NCBI GenBank assembly: GCA_963701075.1
Contig: OY969559.1
Location: 1,568,001 to 1,632,000, forward strand
DNA length: 64,000 nt
Direction: 5' to 3'
DNA from: an uncultured Nitrososphaerota archaeon
Lineage (GTDB): Archaea > Thermoproteota > Nitrososphaeria > Nitrososphaerales > Nitrosopumilaceae
This document shows, piece by piece, positions 361 to 20,060 of this stretch; position 1 is the first letter of the stretch, and the number at the start of each line of letters is the position of its first letter. Under the pieces are notes generated by a model. The model searched no databases. It saw only the letters and a program-made list of their open reading frames with translations, and was not told the origin of the DNA. The translations under genes were made by a program, and so were the position numbers.

Positions 361-1458
361 ATGCAATCTCTCTCCTCTCGTGAAAAGCAAAACTTGCAGT
401 TTGAGACAGTTCTCATCTTGCAGGGAGGAGGATCTCTCGGGGCTTATGAATGCGGGGTCTACAAGGCCTTATACAGACATGGAATCAAGTTCGACATAGT
501 AGCAGGAACTTCTATTGGAGCAGTTAATGCGTCTATTATTACAGGAAGTAGAAGCGACGATCCGGCAAAGGCATTGGAGGAGTTTTGGCTGGATTTGGCA
601 GAAGGTGTAACTTCCTCTAGCTTGCCTGACAAGATACGACCATACTTTGCATCAATGTATTCTGCAGTTTTTGGAAACCCCAAAATGTTCTTTCCAAAAT
701 GGTTTATTCCAAGTGCAGATTATTTTATGCCGTATTTTTGGCAATACATTTACGACATAGCCCCCCTCAAGAAAACATTAAACCAGTATGTCGATTTTCA
801 AAGGATTCAAAGCTCCGATAAGCCAAGACTCATAATAACATCCACCGATGTCCAAAATGCAAAGCCTTCTGTTTTTGATAGCGAGTATGACAATATCGAA
901 GCAGATCACGTACTTGCCAGTGCAGGGTATCCATTTTATGGCATATCATGGACCCAAAAGAGCGGAAAATATCTCTGGGATGGGACTCTTTTGAGCAACA
1001 CACCTCTTCGTGAAGTGATAAATGCTTCACCAAAACACGACAAGAAAGTTTACGTGGTAGATCTCTTTCCAAAAAATCAGCCCGAGCTTCCAAATAACAT
1101 GTTTGAAGTCTGGCACAGAGCAAGAGACATCATACATACTGATAAGACAGAGCATAACATACACATGTCAAGGATAATCACTCGCTACCTGAAATTAATA
1201 CGAGAGATGCATGAAATTCTTAGTTCTTCCACACTTGACGAAAAGGCCAAATCCAAACTTGCACTGTTAGAACTAGAATATCACAAGCTTGCCTCAGAAC
1301 GAGGTAGCATCATAGAGCAGATAGTAAAAATACAACGTCATGAACATGCTCATTTTCTCTTAGAAGATGCAGATTTTTCAATTGCTACAATAAGAGAATT
1401 GATAGAAAAAGGCGAAAGAGATGCAAAGGAAGCGCTCGCTACAAACAGCGTGGAATAG
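361..1458 (+). CDS. Patatin-like phospholipase (candidate PHA depolymerase)
   Basis: Motifs LQGGGSLG, GTSIG (nucleophile) and WDG; adjacent to PHA genes. Confidence 0.9.
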   Translation: MQSLSSREKQNLQFETVLILQGGGSLGAYECGVYKALYRHGIKFDIVAGTSIGAVNASIITGSRSDDPAKALEEFWLDLAEGVTSSSLPDKIRPYFASMYSAVFGNPKMFFPKWFIPSADYFMPYFWQYIYDIAPLKKTLNQYVDFQRIQSSDKPRLIITSTDVQNAKPSVFDSEYDNIEADHVLASAGYPFYGISWTQKSGKYLWDGTLLSNTPLREVINASPKHDKKVYVVDLFPKNQPELPNNMFEVWHRARDIIHTDKTEHNIHMSRIITRYLKLIREMHEILSSSTLDEKAKSKLALLELEYHKLASERGSIIEQIVKIQRHEHAHFLLEDADFSIATIRELIEKGERDAKEALATNSVE

Positions 1459-1562: not shown

Positions 1563-2161
1563 TTGCAAACCAAGTTTGCAGATGTCTGGGGGCACAAAGT
1601 AAGATACTTGGAGGAAGGCAAGTCAGGTAAAACGATCCTGCTTATCCATGGATTAGGCGGTTCTGCAGAGAGATGGTTAAAAGTCATCCCTATTTTGAGC
1701 CCAAAGTACAGGGTTATCGCCCCCGATATGATCGGTTTTGGATATAGCGACAAGCCTTCAGTTGACTATACAATAGAATTTTTTGGCAAGTTCCTATCTG
1801 CTTTTATTGATACATTAGGCCTAAAAACAGCGATTCTGGTAGGTACCTCTCTTGGAGGGCAGATTGCAGCAGAATGTACTAACACCAATCATGCCATAGA
1901 AAAGTTAGTCCTTGTTTCCCCTTCTGGGGCCATGAAACAGTCTACTGCAGCTGTAGACGCATACATGATGGCTGCTCTCTATCCCAATCATGCAAGTGCT
2001 AGAACTGCATTTGAGATGATGGCCAATTCAGGTACAGTTGACGAGTTTACAGTATCTGATTTTGTAAAAAGAATGTCCATTCCAAACGCAAAGCTTGCGT
2101 TTATCTCTTCAGTCCTAGGAATAAAGAACTCGAAGATAGATGAAAGTTTGCAGAAGATCTG
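1563..2161 (+). pseudogene. Alpha/beta-hydrolase, N-terminal ~199 codons, cut by the inversion (ORF reads on to 2339 through antisense sequence)
   Basis: HGLGG and GTSLGG motifs. Aligns with paralog 5655-6458 up to ESLQKI, then loses similarity; catalytic Asp and His are missing. Confidence 0.9.
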
Positions 2162-2299
2162 CATGTTTGTAGGTAAAAGGGATTCTATCTTCTCAATTAC
2201 ATTAGTGGCATTAGTGTGCATAATGTCACAAACAGAAATAGTTGACTTGTTCTCAACAGTATCAGGATTTGTAGGCTGTGGTCTCTTTTGCGCCATCAC
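2157..2299 (-). pseudogene. N-terminal part of a split phasin-like helical protein
   Basis: MAQKRPQ...SVCDIMHTNATNVIEKIESLLPTNMQ joins in frame to 5235-5553 on re-inversion. Confidence 0.8.
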
Positions 2300-2506
2300 C
2301 TGCTATACTATGAGGTATCTTTTAATGATTTGTGGGTGAGGTGTGTTAAGATTCGAACTGGGATAAAACCACTCCTTTTGAATATCCGTACAGCAACTAT
2401 TCCTTCTTTGTTAATCGTTATCTAATATCGATGAGACACTCTGTGATCTTTATCTCAATACAAAGTAGCAATCTCTATAAGATGTGAATGTTACTTAATA
2501 CACTTA

Positions 2507-3085
2507 ATGAGTTATACGGAAGAGTATAAGAAATCATTAGGGTATTACAAGCATGTCTCCCTATTTTGGACAGATTTGATATCTCTGATGTCAAGTAGGC
2601 CACAATCGCTCATGTCCACAGGACCCTTTAGGAAACTAGGTGTTAATGCCAAAAAGGCCAGTGCTGAAATGATAGAGATCAACCAAGGGCTGGCTGAATT
2701 TAATGTAAGACTTGGTGAATATTATAAACAACTCATAGATACGTGGAATGAGGCACAAAAACAATTTAGCAAAAAAGTGCCAGAGATTCCAACCGATACG
2801 GAACATCTTGACGCTACCAAGCGTATCTGGATAGACATATTCGAAAATTACTTTACAAGACTGTTTGATTCTCAGGAATTTGCAGAAAACTTTGGAAAAC
2901 TAGTATCAAGTGAACTTGATCTTGCAAAACACTGGAATAATGTAGCATCGCTCATGTTGGAGACTGTTAACATGCCAACAAAGAAAGAAATTGACGAGCT
3001 GTATAAAGAATTACACTTGTTGCGAAAAAGAGTTGCCAAACTTGAAAAAATATCTAATCATGGAGGAAATGGAAATGGAAAGTGA
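2507..3085 (+). CDS. phaE: Class III PHA synthase subunit PhaE
   Basis: C-terminal NMPTKKEIDELYKELHLLRKRV motif; overlaps phaC. Confidence 0.85.
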   Translation: MSYTEEYKKSLGYYKHVSLFWTDLISLMSSRPQSLMSTGPFRKLGVNAKKASAEMIEINQGLAEFNVRLGEYYKQLIDTWNEAQKQFSKKVPEIPTDTEHLDATKRIWIDIFENYFTRLFDSQEFAENFGKLVSSELDLAKHWNNVASLMLETVNMPTKKEIDELYKELHLLRKRVAKLEKISNHGGNGNGK

Positions 3086-4145
3086 ACTTAGAATAGACCC
3101 CCGTATATTGGAGGAGTTTCTACAAATGAACAGAAATATTCTTGATGCGCCAAAGTTGGTTGCGGCGCCAGATGAGATCAGCATGGAAATGACCCCATAC
3201 GATGTTGTGTATTCTGAAGGAAAGATGAGATTATTACATTTTAATTCTTCCCAGAAAAAACAGGTAAAAACTCCTCTTTTGATTACATATGCTTTGATAA
3301 ACAGATATCATATCCTAGATATTCATCCGCAAAAAAGCTGGGTGAGAAATATGTTAGAACAAGGTCTAGATGTATATTTGATAGATTGGGGAACCCCGAC
3401 TACTATGGATAGATATCTTGGTTTTGATGATTATGTAAATGGCTACATGGACAACTGTGTAGACTTTATTCTTAACGAGTCAGGTGTTGATAAGGTCTCA
3501 ATGCAAGGATACTGTACGGGAGGCACTCTTGCTACAGTTTACGCGTCACTGTATCATGAAAAAATAAAAAACTTGATTTTAACGGCTCCAGTAATTGACG
3601 GGAGCAGGGATAGTACAGTGGTAGCAAACTTGGCAAAACATATGGATGTGGACAAGATGGCTGATATCGTAGGAAATGTACCTCCTGAATTCATGTATTA
3701 CGTGTTCTCTATTCTCAAGCCCTTCGAACAGGGCCTTGAAAAATATGTCCAATTCTTTAAAAATATTCACAACAAAGAGTATGTCGAAAACTTTATCCGA
3801 GTGGAAAAATGGCTAAGCGATACCCCGCCTATTCCGGGCGAACTTTTCAGGGAATGGGTAAAGAATGTCTACCAGGACAATTTACTGATTAGGAACCAAA
3901 TGCATGTATCGGGCAGGCAGATAAATCTCAAAAATATATCCATGCCTGTCTTTACTCAAGTGGCAGTGGGAGATCATCTGGTATCTCCAGAATGCAGTAT
4001 GCCAATACACTATGCGGTGTCTAGTGAAGACAAAACGTTGAGAATGTATGCTACCGGGCATGTAGGTATGATAGCAAGCTCATTTTCTCAAAAAAAGGTA
4101 CTACCAGAACTAGGTCAATGGATAAAAGAAAGATCTGAAAAATAA
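3075..4145 (+). CDS. phaC: Class III PHA synthase subunit PhaC
   Basis: TPYDVVY, PLLITYALINR, IDWG, catalytic box GYCTGG, GDHLV and TGHVG. GGAGG at 3062 supports a start at 3075. Confidence 0.95.
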   Translation: MESELRIDPRILEEFLQMNRNILDAPKLVAAPDEISMEMTPYDVVYSEGKMRLLHFNSSQKKQVKTPLLITYALINRYHILDIHPQKSWVRNMLEQGLDVYLIDWGTPTTMDRYLGFDDYVNGYMDNCVDFILNESGVDKVSMQGYCTGGTLATVYASLYHEKIKNLILTAPVIDGSRDSTVVANLAKHMDVDKMADIVGNVPPEFMYYVFSILKPFEQGLEKYVQFFKNIHNKEYVENFIRVEKWLSDTPPIPGELFREWVKNVYQDNLLIRNQMHVSGRQINLKNISMPVFTQVAVGDHLVSPECSMPIHYAVSSEDKTLRMYATGHVGMIASSFSQKKVLPELGQWIKERSEK

Positions 4146-4168
4146 AAAAAGAGTTAGATACTAACTAA

Positions 4169-4585
4169 CTAATTTCTTGTTGGTGTCCATGCTGAGAACC
4201 AAGATTGCAGTATGTTTGCATTCATATCAGAAAACGCTTTTGTGTTGTCGTTGAATGTCTTTACGTTTTGTCTGATTGCATCAATTGTTGCTAGTACTGC
4301 TTTGCTTTGGACAGAACCTGTCTTGACTATCTCTTCTGTTGCATCATTAACTATTTTGAAGTATGCTGATGGTACATTTGTAGATAGACCTGTTCTTGAA
4401 GTATATTCATGTTGCATTGAAATTGCATTCTCGATTGTATTTTTACATGCTGTTGCATATTCTTGCTGTAGATTGGTTACTGCTTGTAAACACTGTGCAA
4501 CATTCTTCTCTGCTTCATCAAAGCATCGGTTAACATTCTGCTTGTACACTGCAAAGATCTCTTTTGTCTCTGTTGTCTTACTCAT
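4169..4585 (-). CDS. phaP: Phasin-like PHA granule protein
   Basis: 138-aa amphipathic helical protein in the PHA cluster, coupled (ATGA overlap) to the AbrB gene. Confidence 0.7.
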   Translation of the reverse strand: MSKTTETKEIFAVYKQNVNRCFDEAEKNVAQCLQAVTNLQQEYATACKNTIENAISMQHEYTSRTGLSTNVPSAYFKIVNDATEEIVKTGSVQSKAVLATIDAIRQNVKTFNDNTKAFSDMNANILQSWFSAWTPTRN

Positions 4586-5001
4586 TCTTTCACCTCCTCT
4601 TTTTGTTTTCTCCTTTCGACCGGTATGACAATTACTTGTACAAGGTCTTCTTCCTTGATTCCAAGAGCTTCTCGTTCTGCTTCCGGTATCGAAATGCGAC
4701 CATTACTTCCTACTGACGTTTTGAAGGTACCCCATGATAGGAGCGAGGGTAGTAGCTGTGAAGGGTTGAACATGTTGTACATTCCCTTTGACTGCATATC
4801 TGTAAAATTTTGGACAAAATCGGACTGTGCTTTTGTAGTCTTGTTTGTTATTTCTTTTAGTGTTTCAAGCGGATTGATTTGGTTGTTTCTGCTCATCATC
4901 TCGCCAAAAGTCTTCATGAAATCCATCTGTGCCTTTCCACTTCGTTGTATCCACTCGTGGAACATCTCAGTCGGATCGTATTGGTTGTTATTACCAGTCA
5001 T
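4582..5001 (-). CDS. AbrB/MazE/SpoVT-domain regulator, PhaR-like
   Basis: C-terminal FKTSVGSNGRISIPEAEREALGIKEEDLVQVIV; arrangement resembles haloarchaeal phaR-phaP. Confidence 0.85.
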   Translation of the reverse strand: MTGNNNQYDPTEMFHEWIQRSGKAQMDFMKTFGEMMSRNNQINPLETLKEITNKTTKAQSDFVQNFTDMQSKGMYNMFNPSQLLPSLLSWGTFKTSVGSNGRISIPEAEREALGIKEEDLVQVIVIPVERRKQKEEVKE

Positions 5002-5032
5002 TGGTAATAGTTACCAGTAACTGGTATTTAAC
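4991..5032 (-). promoter_or_regulatory. Tandem palindromic operator plus TATA box of the AbrB-phaP operon
   Basis: TTACCAGTCATTGGTAA (4991-5007) and TTACCAGTAACTGGTAT (5011-5027), 20 bp apart. TTAAATA on the minus strand lies ~25-31 nt upstream of ATG 5001. Confidence 0.7.
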
Positions 5033-5234
5033 TCTTGGCCAAAATGAGTCTTGAATCTAGGAACTCTAGTATGGATTCGGAGAATATGTCTGGCTTTTCC
5101 ACATGTGGCAAGTGACCGCAGTCGTCTAACTCTAGGAACTTGCAATTCCTAATTGAGGAGACAAATTGCTTAGCATGCTCAATGGGTATCACTCTGTCTT
5201 CTTTTCCCCACACCAATAATGTGGGCACCCAGAT
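5028..5234 (-). pseudogene. Alpha/beta-hydrolase C-terminal fragment (catalytic Asp/His) of the gene starting at 1563
   Basis: IWVPTLLVWGKEDRVIP...CGHLPHVEKP matches the C-terminus of paralog 5655-6458. Confidence 0.9.
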
Positions 5235-5553
5235 GTATTCGGATTTTTACACAGAATACCTACATTCATTACAAGATCTTTTTGGAGCATGCTATATAGC
5301 AGAAAACGAAATTTTATCCAAGATGGGAATTGACCAGAAAGATCTCCAGTCCTTTGACACATATACCAAGACAGCTACCAGATCAACAATCGTTCAAATT
5401 GAAATGGCTAACAATATTCAAAAAACATATTTACAAACTCAGATATCAGCCATTAAAACACTTGATGAGTACATACGTCTTACACTTGATTATTATTCTA
5501 GGATGCTTTCCATGTCTCTCAACTCTCCTTTTCAGAAAATTTCAAACCACTAG
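5230..5553 (+). pseudogene. C-terminal part of the split phasin-like protein
   Basis: QMYSDFYTEYLHSLQDLFGACYIAENE... is a helical protein whose upstream in-frame sequence is antisense hydrolase. Confidence 0.8.
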
Positions 5554-5654
5554 TTCCTTTTTCTCAAGACAATGCCTTTAGTTGTAGTTAGATTCAATAA
5601 ATTGCCAAAATTGGTAAATAATATAGCTCGACAAAAACTTATGTAACGATTAAA

Positions 5655-6458
5655 TTGACCAAATTATACATGCAAGAGAAATATATCACAGTCAACGGAA
5701 ATAAGATAAGGTATATTGAAGAAGGAGACTCGAAAAATACCATAATTTTACTTCATGGCTTAGGAGGAATAGCAGAGAGATGGTTACCTGTAGTTCCGCT
5801 TCTGAGTAAAAAATACAGAGTGATTGCACTTGATTTGATCGGATACGGTCAAAGTGATAAACCACAGGTAGATTACACACCAGAGTTCTTCAGAGATTCT
5901 GTACTTGGCTTTCTAGAAACATTGTCATTGCAGAAGACTGTTATGGTGGGTACATCTCTCGGAGGGGAGATAGTGGCGGAATGTGCAGCTACACAAAATC
6001 CTTTGATTAAAAAAATAGTTATGGTGGCACCGGCTGGCATAATGAAGAGTCACACTCCTGTTCTTGATGCATATACAATGGCTGCACTATATCCAAATCA
6101 CGAATCTGTAAAAATAGCATATCAGATGATGATGGGAGAAAATAAAGAGATAAGTCCCCAGTCAGTTGAAAACTTCATTTCGAATATGACTAGACCCAAC
6201 TCCAAGATGGTGTTTCTTTCCACACTTTTAGGGATGAAAAACTCTCCTGTCATAACAGAGAAACTAAAGCTAATCAAAGTACCTACGCTTCTCATATGGG
6301 GAAAGGAAGACAAGATGATTCCAATAGAATATTCCAAAGAGTTTGTGAGCTCAATTCCAGGTTGCGATTTTGTAGTTATGAATGGATGCGGACATACGCC
6401 ATACGAAGAAAAACCCAATGAATTTTCAAAACTAGTGCTTGACTTTTTATCCAGGTAG
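5655..6458 (+). CDS. Alpha/beta-hydrolase, intact paralog (likely start ATG 5670)
   Basis: HGLGG, GTSLGG, WGKED and CGHTP give a complete triad. Confidence 0.92.
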   Translation: MTKLYMQEKYITVNGNKIRYIEEGDSKNTIILLHGLGGIAERWLPVVPLLSKKYRVIALDLIGYGQSDKPQVDYTPEFFRDSVLGFLETLSLQKTVMVGTSLGGEIVAECAATQNPLIKKIVMVAPAGIMKSHTPVLDAYTMAALYPNHESVKIAYQMMMGENKEISPQSVENFISNMTRPNSKMVFLSTLLGMKNSPVITEKLKLIKVPTLLIWGKEDKMIPIEYSKEFVSSIPGCDFVVMNGCGHTPYEEKPNEFSKLVLDFLSR

Positions 6459-16119: not shown

Positions 16120-16998
16120 ATGGATCCGATAAATACTGCCGTAATTGTCAAACTTGAGCCTGATTTTTCAGAAGGAAATGTCAGTTATAACCCAGACGGC
16201 ACTCTTAATCGAGCAGAAACAAAGAACATACTGGGCCCACATAGCGCTATTGCTGTTTCTGCTGCCTTTTATGCCAAGGTAAAGTATGGTGCCAAGATCT
16301 CAATAGGCACCATGGGGCCACCTATGGCTGAATCCATGCTACAGCAAGCTCAATTGATGTCTAATGCAGACGAGCTTTGTCTTTTCAGTGACAGAATCTT
16401 TGCAGGAGCCGATACACTGGCAACTGCTGAGGTTCTCAAGGCAGGAGTACAAAAAATGCATGGAAAGATGGACATTGTATTTTCCGGGCACAGAGCCTCC
16501 GATGGCGAGACTGGACAGACAGGTCCTCAGACAGCATGGAAGCTTGGAATGACATTTCTGGGGCACGTAATAGACTACGAGATAAATCTCGAGAGCAGAA
16601 CAATCAGGGCCAAGAGACTTGTCAGAATGCAAGGAGTTTACGATGTCGTTGAAGAGATTGAAGCTCCACTTCCTGTTTTTATTGCAATAGATCCTTCATA
16701 CAAACCCAAATTCAACACAGTGTCACAACGGTTAGCTTATGAGAAATACCAAAAGGAGGCAGGCGAGCGCGCTCAAAACTTTAAACAGTATCTCAAAGTC
16801 TTCAATGCTGTACAGATAGAAGCAGACCCAACGCTTATTGGAATGTCTGGCTCTCCAACTATTGTTTACAAAGTAGAACGCATACCAAAAGGCAAGGCAA
16901 CCAGACAAGCTGAAATCATAGATGGTTCAAATCAAGAACAGATTCGCAAAGTTGTCGCAAGATTTCAACAGTCATTATCCACAGCGGTGATAAAATGA
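16120..16998 (+). CDS. fixA: Electron transfer flavoprotein beta subunit
   Basis: TMGPP, DRIFAGADTLAT, GHRASDGETGQTG and GSPT motifs. Confidence 0.92.
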   Translation: MDPINTAVIVKLEPDFSEGNVSYNPDGTLNRAETKNILGPHSAIAVSAAFYAKVKYGAKISIGTMGPPMAESMLQQAQLMSNADELCLFSDRIFAGADTLATAEVLKAGVQKMHGKMDIVFSGHRASDGETGQTGPQTAWKLGMTFLGHVIDYEINLESRTIRAKRLVRMQGVYDVVEEIEAPLPVFIAIDPSYKPKFNTVSQRLAYEKYQKEAGERAQNFKQYLKVFNAVQIEADPTLIGMSGSPTIVYKVERIPKGKATRQAEIIDGSNQEQIRKVVARFQQSLSTAVIK

Positions 16999-18179
16999 CA
17001 GAGGGAGATTACAGACATGTTTACATTGTAATAGAGCATGAAGAAGAAAAGATACTACAAGTAAGTCTTGAAATGCTCGGAGAAGCAAGAAGAATATTAG
17101 ATGATTTTAACAAGAAATACTCATCTAAAGAAAAAGTTGTTGCCGTTTTATTGGGATACAACATAAAAAACATACCAAAAACTTTGATTCAACATGGAGC
17201 AGACGCAGTAATTTGTGCAGACGATCCAGAATTAAAATATGTCAGAAATACGGTTTACACCAAGACGATATCTGAGATAGCAACAGATAGAGACATCGCG
17301 GCAAAGATAGAGCCGGAATATGCAGTACAATTCAAGAGGCCCAGATACATGTTCTTTGCAGCTGACAGCATAGGAAGACACCTTTCTGCAACAGTTTTAG
17401 CACATCTAGAGTCTGGTCTTGCATCAGACATCAACAAGTTAGTTGTAGGAGACCTTCAGATAACTCACCAAAACAAGACAGGTGGAAAACCTCTCACTTA
17501 TGAAAAAACACTTGAGATGTACAGGCCAGACTTTTCTGGATTTTTATGGACTACGATCCTTTGTCTAGATAATAAAAATCCAGCAATGCCAAGAGATTAT
17601 CACCCGCAAGCTTGCAGTATAATACCAGGAGTTTTTGAAATAATCCAACCTGACCCAAATCGCGATGGCAAGATAATTGAGTACGCACCAAAGTTTGACG
17701 AACAAGATCTAAAAGTCAAGATCATAGACCGTAAGATCATCAAGAGTGAGATTGACTTTGATAGCCACAAAACAATAGTAAGCTTTGGGCGCGGAGTCAA
17801 AGATTCGCCTGAGCAAAACATCAAGTTAATCGAACAACTTGCTGCAGAATTGGATGCACAGATTGGGATCACCCTACCGCTGTCCAAAAGGCCATTCTCT
17901 GTTAGTCAAACAGTAGATTCCACTTACCTAATACCAGATAGAGTAATAGGTACTAGTGGAAGAAAGGTTAATCCAAAATTGTACATAGCTGTTGGGATCA
18001 GCGGTGCCATGCAACACATAGCAGGTATGAAAGAGTCAGAGACAATCATTGCAATCAATCCAGACGAGAACGCATTAATCAAAGATGAATGCGATGTCTT
18101 CATAAAAGGAAGAATGGAAGATGTCATTCCAGTCCTCATAGAAGAGATAAGGAAACAAAAACAGGTCGTTCAGGCGTAA
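16995..18179 (+). CDS. fixB: Electron transfer flavoprotein alpha subunit
   Basis: VSFGRG, IGTSGRKVNPKLYIAVGISGAMQHIAGM and IAINPD; overlaps fixA. Confidence 0.92.
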   Translation: MTEGDYRHVYIVIEHEEEKILQVSLEMLGEARRILDDFNKKYSSKEKVVAVLLGYNIKNIPKTLIQHGADAVICADDPELKYVRNTVYTKTISEIATDRDIAAKIEPEYAVQFKRPRYMFFAADSIGRHLSATVLAHLESGLASDINKLVVGDLQITHQNKTGGKPLTYEKTLEMYRPDFSGFLWTTILCLDNKNPAMPRDYHPQACSIIPGVFEIIQPDPNRDGKIIEYAPKFDEQDLKVKIIDRKIIKSEIDFDSHKTIVSFGRGVKDSPEQNIKLIEQLAAELDAQIGITLPLSKRPFSVSQTVDSTYLIPDRVIGTSGRKVNPKLYIAVGISGAMQHIAGMKESETIIAINPDENALIKDECDVFIKGRMEDVIPVLIEEIRKQKQVVQA

Positions 18180-18190
18180 GGTGAGATGTG

Positions 18191-20060
18191 TTGGAAAAAT
18201 ATGATGTAGACTATAATTGGTGGAGGTTCTGCAGGCCTTGCAGCATTGAAGCATCTATCCACGTTAGGAAAGCAGGCAATTCTCTTCGAGTCAGGAAATA
18301 AGATTGGTGCTAAAAATATTTCAGGAGGCATCCTCTATTCTAAAAAACCAAAAAAAGGAAAAACATACAATGTAGAAGACATATATGAAAACTTTCTACA
18401 AGATGCGCCTTTTGAGAGAAAGATAACAAAATACATTTTACATGCGACCTCAAAAGACAAAGTCTTTTCCATAGACCTGACTGCCGCACACGAGTATGAA
18501 GCAAATTTTGGTTGTTCAGTACTTATGAACAAACTAAATCAATGGTTTTCACAGCAGGCAGAAGAAGCAGCTCAAAAACATGGTGGGGGAATAGTGACAG
18601 GAGTTCATGTTAGTTCCATAAGATGGGAAGATGGACGTACCATCATACAGACAGACGAACTTGAAGAGATTGAGGTCAAGGCAATAATTGCTGCCGATGG
18701 AGTAAACTCTGAAGTGGCAGACATGACTGGTGCACGACAGAAATTTTCTCCAAGTGAGCTCTATCAAGGAGTCAAGGTTGTTGCAAAATTACCTGAAGAA
18801 ATTATTAACCAGCGATTTTCAATCGGACAAGATGAAGGCGCCGCACACCTTTTTGCTGGAGACATCACACTAAATCACATAGGAGGAGGCTTTCTGTACA
18901 CTAATCGTGACACCCTGTCACTGGGAGCAGTATACCATCTTGACTCGCTTTTAGAAACACCAAATGAGCCTTACGAACTTGTAAACACGTTGCTGAAAAA
19001 TCCCATGATAAGTGAATTTGTCAAAGATGAAGTTCCAGTCAGAGGTGAGATCGATAGAGATGCCGCAAAAGAAGAACAGATGCGTATTCGTTTTGCAGTA
19101 ACAAAAATGATAAAGACGTGGTCAGAGTTAAGAGACATCTATTATTCCAAAAAGGAAAAAGAGAGACTAATCAAAGAAGGAAAGTATGGATCCTCAGAAG
19201 AGATAGGAACACAGTTATCGTCTCTTAGAGACCAGATGTCAACAAAATACGGTATCAAGTTTGAAACAGATTATGTTGAAGTAGAATACAGTGCAAAGTT
19301 GGTACCAGACGGAAAACGATGCAGAATGGAAAAGCCTTACTTCAAAAACATATTATTCGTAGGAGATGCAGCTGGAAGAGGCATATTTGTAGGCCCCAGA
19401 ATAGAGGGACTCAATGTTGGAATTGATGATGCAGTAAGAGCGGCAAATGCAGTTGCAAGAGCGTTAGATAAAGGAGACTTTACAGAAAAATATCTTGGAG
19501 AATACTATTCACAGTCGGTAGAAGAGAGCCCCTATACTCATGACTTGAAAGCAATAGACAAAGACTATCTGAAGATATTTCTTGATGCAGCAAAAGAAGT
19601 TCCAAAAGATATCATTAGTTCAAAATATGGCCTGGTCATAAAGATGATGTCAAGTGATACTCTGAGGAGCTTTGCAGTAGGGTTTGCAAATATTCTAGGA
19701 TATGAAAAGCTATTGCCAATCATTGAAACTGTTGACACCTATGTCAAGGTACCAACCGAACTTGCAGAAAGACTGGGCAAGAGCATATCTGCGTCTTATA
19801 CTCCAACCCTCCCATCCATTGCGCAGAGGGTAGCGAAATTAAAATTCAATGATGACAGTATTTCACACATCAAGGTACTAAAGCCCACCAGCGAATTCAT
19901 GAAAAAAATGGTAACTTTGTGTCCTACAAGATGTTATCTCATGGAAAAAGAGGGAGTCATGATACAACACGAAGGATGTGTCGAATGCGGCACTTGTTCA
20001 GAGGAGACAGACTGGAAACACCCTCGTGGAGAGAAGGGAATCAATTATCAATACGGATAG
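18191..20060 (+). CDS. fixC: FixC flavoprotein fused to a FixX-like ferredoxin, +1 frameshift at AGACT 18208-18212
   Basis: Removing one A gives LEKYDVAIIGGGSAG (FAD-binding). Also GAKNISGG, AADGVNS, VGDAAG and C-terminal CPTRCY...CVECGTC...WKHPRG. Confidence 0.9.

Follow-up and report, generated by a model that had tools for sequence, protein, structure and literature searches.

Spacer inversion with arm homogenisation is a described outcome of template switching during replication, arising at short, imperfect inverted repeats (PMC8604942, PMC5941160). The reported events are small, with spacers of 2-5 bp and arms of more than 9 bp (PMC8604942), and spacers were searched up to 70 bp (PMC5941160); these and all other published systems are compared here on the basis of excerpts from the papers cited. 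The locus considered here lies in a 64,000-nucleotide stretch ("the window") of an uncultured, ammonia-oxidising soil archaeon of the Nitrososphaerota, assigned here to the genus Nitrosotalea (assembly GCA_963701075.1, contig OY969559.1, positions 1,568,001 to 1,632,000), in a gene cluster for polyhydroxyalkanoate (PHA) storage. PHA synthase is already known from ammonia-oxidising archaea (PMC7554672), and the Haloferax PHA depolymerase PhaZh1 is a patatin (PMC7137286). In this one strain, 3.08 kb of the cluster is inverted, with one breakpoint inside an alpha/beta-hydrolase gene (hydrolase 1) and the other inside a small open reading frame (ORF152). The locus is best read as one more case of a known kind of event, a fixed inversion that arose spontaneously and was guided by microhomology. 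The event was probably a recent, one-off accident, most plausibly a replication template switch at a three-base chance match.

The inverted block and its ancestral order

The block spans 3,078 bp with both junction 5-mers included, or 3,068 bp between them. It is delimited as follows, together with the halves of the two genes that it breaks (sequencing runs X1 to X5 are described below):

2157-5234, no strand: inverted block; aligned to relatives, it lies on the strand opposite to the flanks, with flush ends
2157-2161, plus strand: left junction 5-mer ATCTG; first 2-3 bases ancestral to both sites, last two from the ORF152 site; bridged in X1-X5
5230-5234, plus strand: right junction 5-mer CAGAT; equals the ancestral ORF152 sequence, with the hydrolase's own two bases absent; bridged in X1-X3
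1563-2159, plus strand: 5' part of hydrolase 1 (alpha/beta-hydrolase); codons 1-199, including Ser96; the frame continues to 2339 as a 258-aa (amino acid) chimera
5028-5229, minus strand: 3' part of hydrolase 1, with Asp211 (5198) and His239 (5114)
2157-2296, minus strand: 5' part of ORF152 (helical protein); codons 1-47
5233-5553, plus strand: 3' part of ORF152; begins at its own in-frame Met47, 106 aa; no known promoter

When 2157-5234 is flipped in silico by script, a 266-aa hydrolase and a 153-aa ORF appear; alignment of the latter to relatives begins at the ATG at 2296, giving 152 aa. The flipped form aligns to relatives in one piece, over 6,099 columns at 90% identity in locus L002 and 2,635 columns at 95% in L003, whereas with the window form BLAST pieces stop at 2157-2159 and 5229-5230. 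It is these alignments that fix the exact breakpoints, since open frames do not; restoration of the frames was rejected as proof of position because many in-frame breakpoint pairs likewise give open frames. The first-pass annotation of the window had pointed out ATCTG/CAGAT at both junctions, where it is indeed found. Inverted matches between 2140-2175 and 5215-5255 reach 5-6 bp at most, and this is one of the two longest. No longer or imperfect repeat at the joints was present among the 25 longest inverted pairs listed or was found by direct alignment, and the sequences around the two joints agree at only 18 of 55 positions. A 6-bp hairpin also crosses the left joint (2149-2163); comparable hairpins occur at 2.5% of 100,000 random joints, so that this is suggestive only.

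The inversion is real. The host genome (G000) is a single-contig assembly of 1,915,938 bases, 95% complete, and 22 sequencing runs were matched to the locus, five of them with half or more of its sequence words; eight (X1-X6, X10 and X11) were examined in detail, as assembled contigs at a depth of 2-11. Contigs of five runs from two studies have the window orientation, the left joint being bridged in 5/5 and the right joint in 3/5, and no ancestral joint was seen in the contigs of X1-X5. The four runs of one study (X1-X4) show the window orientation with no other letters and no indels. In X1, a single 11.4-kb contig covers 500-7500 and both joints; X2 and X3 also bridge both. X4 bridges the left joint only, its right joint having been left uncounted because just three bases lie inside the block. 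In X5, from the second study, the left joint is bridged without a single difference, and none of the listed pieces bridges the right one. The loose ends in X2 resemble a tagmentation adapter. In X6, X10 and X11, which are from relatives in three further studies, the ancestral hydrolase joint is found in 3/3 and the ancestral ORF152 joint in 2/3 as listed.

Hydrolase matches were obtained in 60 of the 62 other genomes of the genus that were searched, and loci were retrieved for the closest copies. The 32 orthologous hydrolase sequences (25 from 24 genomes and seven from metagenome contigs, some of them near-duplicates) all align across the breakpoint site in one piece. Likewise, 18 genomes, plus 11 more in a separate comparison, have ORF152 running without a break through its site. 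The gene order of the window occurs in 0 of the 80 phaC loci examined; the hydrolase lies directly upstream of abrB in 65 of the 80, including records titled Nitrosopumilus. A metagenome scan gave 57 loci, of which eight were close enough for use and seven reach the site; all seven are ancestral, and none is from the same strain. Because the orthologs are unbroken and no other phaC locus has it, the window order is derived and, among the loci examined, private to this strain. The ancestral order that had been predicted from the window itself (patatin > hydrolase > abrB > phaP < phaC < phaE, phasin2 > hydrolase2) is exactly the order of the relatives in the synteny comparison.

A second layout was observed in Nitrosotalea (L032-L034 and L281-L285), in which the order is abrB-phaP-phaC-phaE-ORF152-hydrolase 2, with patatin next in most. 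Hydrolase 1 is absent from these loci where they extend far enough. In one genome with 5% contamination (G001), patatin and hydrolase 1 occur twice, on different contigs (L139 and L004).

The junction repeat and the origin of the inversion

Was the 5-bp repeat there before the inversion? In the six nearest hydrolase orthologs (92-97% amino acid identity), residues 199-201 are Ile-Met-Val, with ATG at codon 200, preceded by ATC in four of the six; the flipped window reads ATC TGG. The hydrolase site of these relatives thus carries at most three bases of the repeat. Near relatives mostly have CAGAT at the ORF152 site. Since the nearest orthologs have ATG at codon 200, the ancestral sites shared at most ATC. 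Two hydrolase bases were replaced by those of the ORF152 site, which now stand on both joints, with a net length change of zero; the two exchange points are 2-5 bases apart, in one register. The 5-bp inverted repeat is thus mostly a product of the inversion, around an ancestral core of at most 3 bp, and not the pre-existing homology for which it was first taken. A repeat that grows from 3 to 5 bp in the derived state, around an inverted spacer and with length kept, is the pattern that defines arm homogenisation by template switching. (Among 200,000 random breakpoint pairs in the genome, an inverted match of at least 5 bp is found at 0.65%, and of at least 3 bp at 6.0%.) The earlier claim that re-inversion restores both ORFs with no base gained or lost stands for the 266-aa and 153-aa frames and for net length, but bases were altered: codon 200 becomes TGG, as against ATG in the six nearest orthologs. 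Flipping back would not rebuild the ancestral protein, because Trp200 would result and not Met. More generally, an inversion can itself create a short perfect inverted repeat at its ends, and such a repeat is no evidence of a switch unless an outgroup is at hand.

The private changes in the two broken genes are 10 silent and three amino-acid-changing, with the junction codon excluded, compared with 34 silent and 15 amino-acid-changing in six intact neighbours (Fisher p 0.74). Under a simple neutral-decay model, the genes having been dead for at least 20% of the terminal branch is rejected (p 0.025; synonymous divergence of the branch, dS, about 0.03). Since the broken halves show no decay, the event is likely to have been recent.

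Nor do kilobase inversions appear to be a habit of the genome. The comparison was made with a relative, G064, of which 1.79 Mb was available (66 contigs, a few short tails missing) and 1.48 Mb aligned at 92.3%. Four of the 357 blocks lie in place on the opposite strand, and the inversion at the PHA locus is the only one that is both longer than 250 bp and flush. Smaller events do occur. A 104-bp flip in G064 (L153:18228-18331, on its contig C12) lies in a decayed second copy of a gene that we take, from its motifs, to be acyl-CoA-synthetase-like; it has a 2-base overwrite and zero net change in length, resembling the PHA scar. It was polarised by the intact copies in G000 and G064, the outgroup search having given only weak paralog matches. 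A scan of 598 low-identity patches, covering G064 plus 100 kb of G019, gave four candidates, of which two are clear inversions of 17-18-bp spacers between short inverted arms (no outgroup). Both are intergenic (G000:1,536,710-1,536,750 against G064 C14; G000:1,393,290-1,393,325 against G064 C15), and in one of them a 10-bp arm is perfect in G064 alone. These two would be textbook template-switch patterns in an archaeon, suggesting that the process is active in the genus.

How, then, could 3 kb have been turned around? A template switch at the locus would have begun with the nascent strand leaving its template for the opposite one at the ATC common to both sites. That template would then have been copied backwards over the 3-kb block before the strand returned to its original template, leaving the ORF152 bases on both joints. 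The outcome would be the "spacer inversion plus arm homogenisation" of short imperfect inverted repeats, over a far longer spacer. That the rearrangement is fixed, which was one of the options first proposed, is supported, the orientation being uniform in X1-X5. A fixed, one-off inversion, likely by template switching, is the explanation to which we give good, though not full, credence.

Several points weigh against it. The 3,068-bp spacer and 3-bp seed are far outside the published template-switch range (PMC8604942, PMC5941160), and only one of the switch points has in-register 3' homology, while the other would have had to slip by one base or start from a mismatched end. The ancestral state is taken from relatives that are about 4-10% divergent and belong to other species. 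The genome may have been assembled from X1-X3, and contigs at this depth lose rare variants, so that a minor flipped fraction would go unseen. Finally, the lack of decay would be expected equally of a reversible switch, and is the best point in favor of one.

The strongest competitor, though still an unlikely one, is a single staggered cut at both sites (2-5 bases) with a swap of ends, by subunit exchange of topoisomerase VI or by an off-target tyrosine recombinase. Replication would then resolve the mismatched overlaps, so that both joints end up with the bases of one site. By our own derivation, a single step of this kind predicts the two marks of the scar, a net length change of zero and bases from one and the same partner at either joint. 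The minimal overlap is two bases, and topoisomerase VI cuts with 2-nt overhangs; subunit exchange is also a suggested route of illegitimate recombination by type II topoisomerases (PMC3159449). The exchange-point offset of 2-5 nt is compatible with this enzyme, and G000 encodes topoisomerase VI A, a type IB topoisomerase and four tyrosine recombinase matches. However, in the excerpts of that work such recombination is shown for type IIA enzymes only (PMC3159449), and no gyrase A match was found in G000. An overhang of two bases mismatched at both should presumably ligate poorly, and the repeat is at most 5 bp, against the 7-bp overlap of lambda-type enzymes (PMC8371274). The 104-bp flip in G064, with its similar overwrite and unchanged length, is the only further candidate, but it is one case only, lies in a pseudogene of 86% identity and differs at a third base as well. 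One scar cannot tell a template switch from a staggered cut-and-swap.

Somewhat less probable is that a point mutation at codon 200 came first, creating a 4-5-bp chance repeat at which a plain microhomology crossover then took place. Codon 200 is variable (among the 32 orthologs, Met in 15, Lys in seven, Thr in four, Ala and Gln in two each, Arg and Val in one each), and one earlier change would give a 4-of-5 match. However, the hydrolase has just one other private amino-acid-changing change in 264 codons, two adjacent changes both matching the partner site are unlikely, and Trp is found in none of the 32.

A broader proposal can be made, which we consider improbable: that ammonia-oxidising archaea make clean kilobase inversions with almost no homology by the 2-base staggered cut-and-swap of topoisomerase VI, the locus being a fresh footprint and the strain a natural double knockout of two genes of the PHA cluster. 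An enzymatic swap, if true, would name a source of archaeal rearrangement that is not described in the excerpts consulted.

Very little speaks for a reversible intragenic switch, rarely flipped by a distant recombinase, by which PHA storage would be coupled to turnover; a switch was among the options raised at first and has gained no support. The broken halves are indeed without decay, flipping back restores both frames, and invertons with no nearby recombinase exist (PMC9881135). However, a single orientation is seen and no ancestral joint occurs in five runs (as contigs, from which rare forms can drop out), the repeat pair is absent from relatives and is neither ancestral nor conserved, and the flip would give Trp200 in place of the ancestral residue. 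The resemblance around the joints is also slight for such a system: the repeat of a validated intragenic inverton measured 11 bp (PMC10028968), and for programmed inversions the screen was set at 22 bp, with at least 14 bp in the confirmed cases (PMC9881135). A genome-wide search gave 0 matches to serine resolvases (PF00239) in this 95%-complete genome and four to tyrosine recombinases (PF00589), the nearest about 200 kb from the locus; no recombinase or transposase family was found among 22 ORFs in the 20 kb downstream (7-27 kb of the window), the upstream side being covered only by the two genome-wide searches.

An assembly or amplification chimera, which might be suspected because the genome is a single-contig assembly of which three of the runs may be the source, is excluded in practice, since the left joint was assembled without differences in five separate runs, one of them from another study.

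As the private mutation of one lineage, the inversion matters little in itself; its scar is unusually legible. No published description of it was found among the titles and abstract openings listed in a search of partial coverage.

Broken and intact genes of the cluster

In hydrolase 1, the PF00561 match corresponds to the first part of the gene at 1563, with the missing end on the minus strand at 5031-5234. The Ser-Asp-His triad is conserved in the orthologs (Asp211 in 32/32, His239 in the 31/31 that reach that position). In the strain it is split over two fragments: as had been noted from the sequence, the catalytic Asp and His are lost, lying on the opposite strand 3 kb from Ser96. Because of this separation hydrolase 1 is likely to be dead, and is predicted to be inactive. 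The five nearest orthologs checked are 265 aa long, compared with 266 aa in the strain after the flip; a private 4-base deletion at the stop (5033), beside the TATA-like box of abrB, adds the one residue. The label "degradative esterase" is a lead only: against a cut-off of 300 for the depolymerase family NF050089, the 198-aa part of hydrolase 1 scores 72.5 bits and the whole of hydrolase 2 97.3 bits.

The label "phasin-like" for ORF152 may likewise be treated as a weak lead. None of 14 ORF152 orthologs matches a phasin family, and the hhalign comparison with the phaP-like family is weak (probability 6.6, E 0.0055). The nearest named atlas cluster is PhaP_Bmeg (0.89), itself a lead. The predicted structure has two long helices (predicted local distance difference test, pLDDT, 70), and a fold search gave no PDB match at E 0.001.

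Loss of both genes is likely to be tolerated, because hydrolase 2, a third paralog and patatin are kept and some relatives are without one or the other gene at the locus. Three genomes that are 97-99% complete (G009, G014 and G015) have no hydrolase upstream of abrB and one hydrolase match each, and in two others (G008 and G061) ORF152 is absent at the locus. The strain is a natural loss-of-function case for the hydrolase upstream of the PHA regulator, which could help to assign its role.

The rest of the cluster is intact:

2507-3085, plus strand: phaE, inside the block; PF09712 E 1.7e-13, above cut-off; TIGR01834 below cut-off
3075-4145, plus strand: phaC, class III synthase, inside the block; TIGR01836 428 bits against a cut-off of 365
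4169-4585, minus strand: phaP-like gene, inside the block; labelled from its position beside abrB only; conserved in relatives
4582-5001, minus strand: AbrB-domain regulator (PhaR-like), inside the block; TIGR01439 E 4.5e-6, just under cut-off
5012-5031, minus strand: TATA-like box (5031-5025) with a palindrome that overlaps it; both lie upstream of abrB and are carried inside the block
361-1458, plus strand: patatin-like gene, left flank; PF01734 E 9e-27
5655-6458, plus strand: hydrolase 2, intact paralog, right flank; 54% identical to hydrolase 1

A PhaC above the TIGR01836 cut-off with an adjacent PhaE identifies a class III PHA synthase. The phaP-like gene has no phasin family match in Pfam or NCBIfam; a second phaP-like copy lies at G000:1,201,510-1,201,916 (68% DNA identity), and the third hydrolase paralog is at G000:1,699,416-1,699,979. 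In agreement with the first-pass annotation, phaE, phaC, the phaP-like gene and abrB are open frames with their own upstream regions, and the TATA-like box of abrB travels inside the block; all 23 loci with upstream sequence (of 24 queried) have a TTAWAT box some 23 bases ahead of abrB. The PHA synthesis genes are predicted to work still.

Two TACCA-N5-TGGTA palindromes, 20 bases apart (4992-5031, minus strand), cover the start of abrB and its TATA-like box. By a count made by eye, 16 of 23 loci from relatives retain the first palindrome in an ACC-N7-GGT form. The pair is a candidate operator through which the PhaR-like protein would regulate its own gene.

The flip has left patatin and hydrolase 1 pointing into phaEC (1458-2506) and hydrolase 2 separated from the ORF152 upstream region (5233-5655); expression may have changed. 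Further along the window, at 16120-20060, an etfB/etfA-like pair precedes an ORF of 604 aa for which Pfam gave no match at E 1e-5.

Comparison with described systems

As a PHA cluster, the locus resembles maoC-phaR-phaP-phaE-phaC of Haloferax mediterranei in having an AbrB regulator beside a small gene in the phaP position, class III phaEC and a patatin (PMC7137286). It differs in that the phaRP-like and phaEC genes converge and are flanked by alpha/beta-hydrolases and ORF152, the comparison being one of layout and not of homology.

As an inversion, it shares with the invertons and programmed inversions (PMC10028968, PMC9881135) breakpoints within coding sequence and a flip that alters two genes. 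Unlike them, it has shown no second orientation, and has no conserved repeat, a repeat of 5 bp, no swap of homologous domains and no linked recombinase. The Thermococcus inversions driven by IntpTN3 are also archaeal chromosomal inversions away from a dedicated site, but the segments on which IntpTN3 acts must be identical over some 104 bp or more (PMC8371274), and none is present here. Illegitimate recombination by type II topoisomerases makes a reciprocal joint at less than 10 bp of homology, as here; the described cases are of type IIA (PMC3159449), whereas this genome has topoisomerase VI and no gyrase A match, and no enzyme is tied to the event.

In the Drosophila staggered-break inversions (Ranz et al. 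2007, PMC1885836), the end repeat is likewise made by the inversion and duplicated from one breakpoint; those duplications are of 46 bp to 1.9 kb and add sequence, whereas here 2-5 bp were copied with an equal loss. The repeats reshaped by template switching (PMC8604942, PMC5941160) differ in scale and host, the present case having a 3,068-bp spacer, a 3-bp seed and an archaeal setting, but they have the same signature: the spacer is inverted, one arm is overwritten, the perfect repeat is made by the event, and length is kept.

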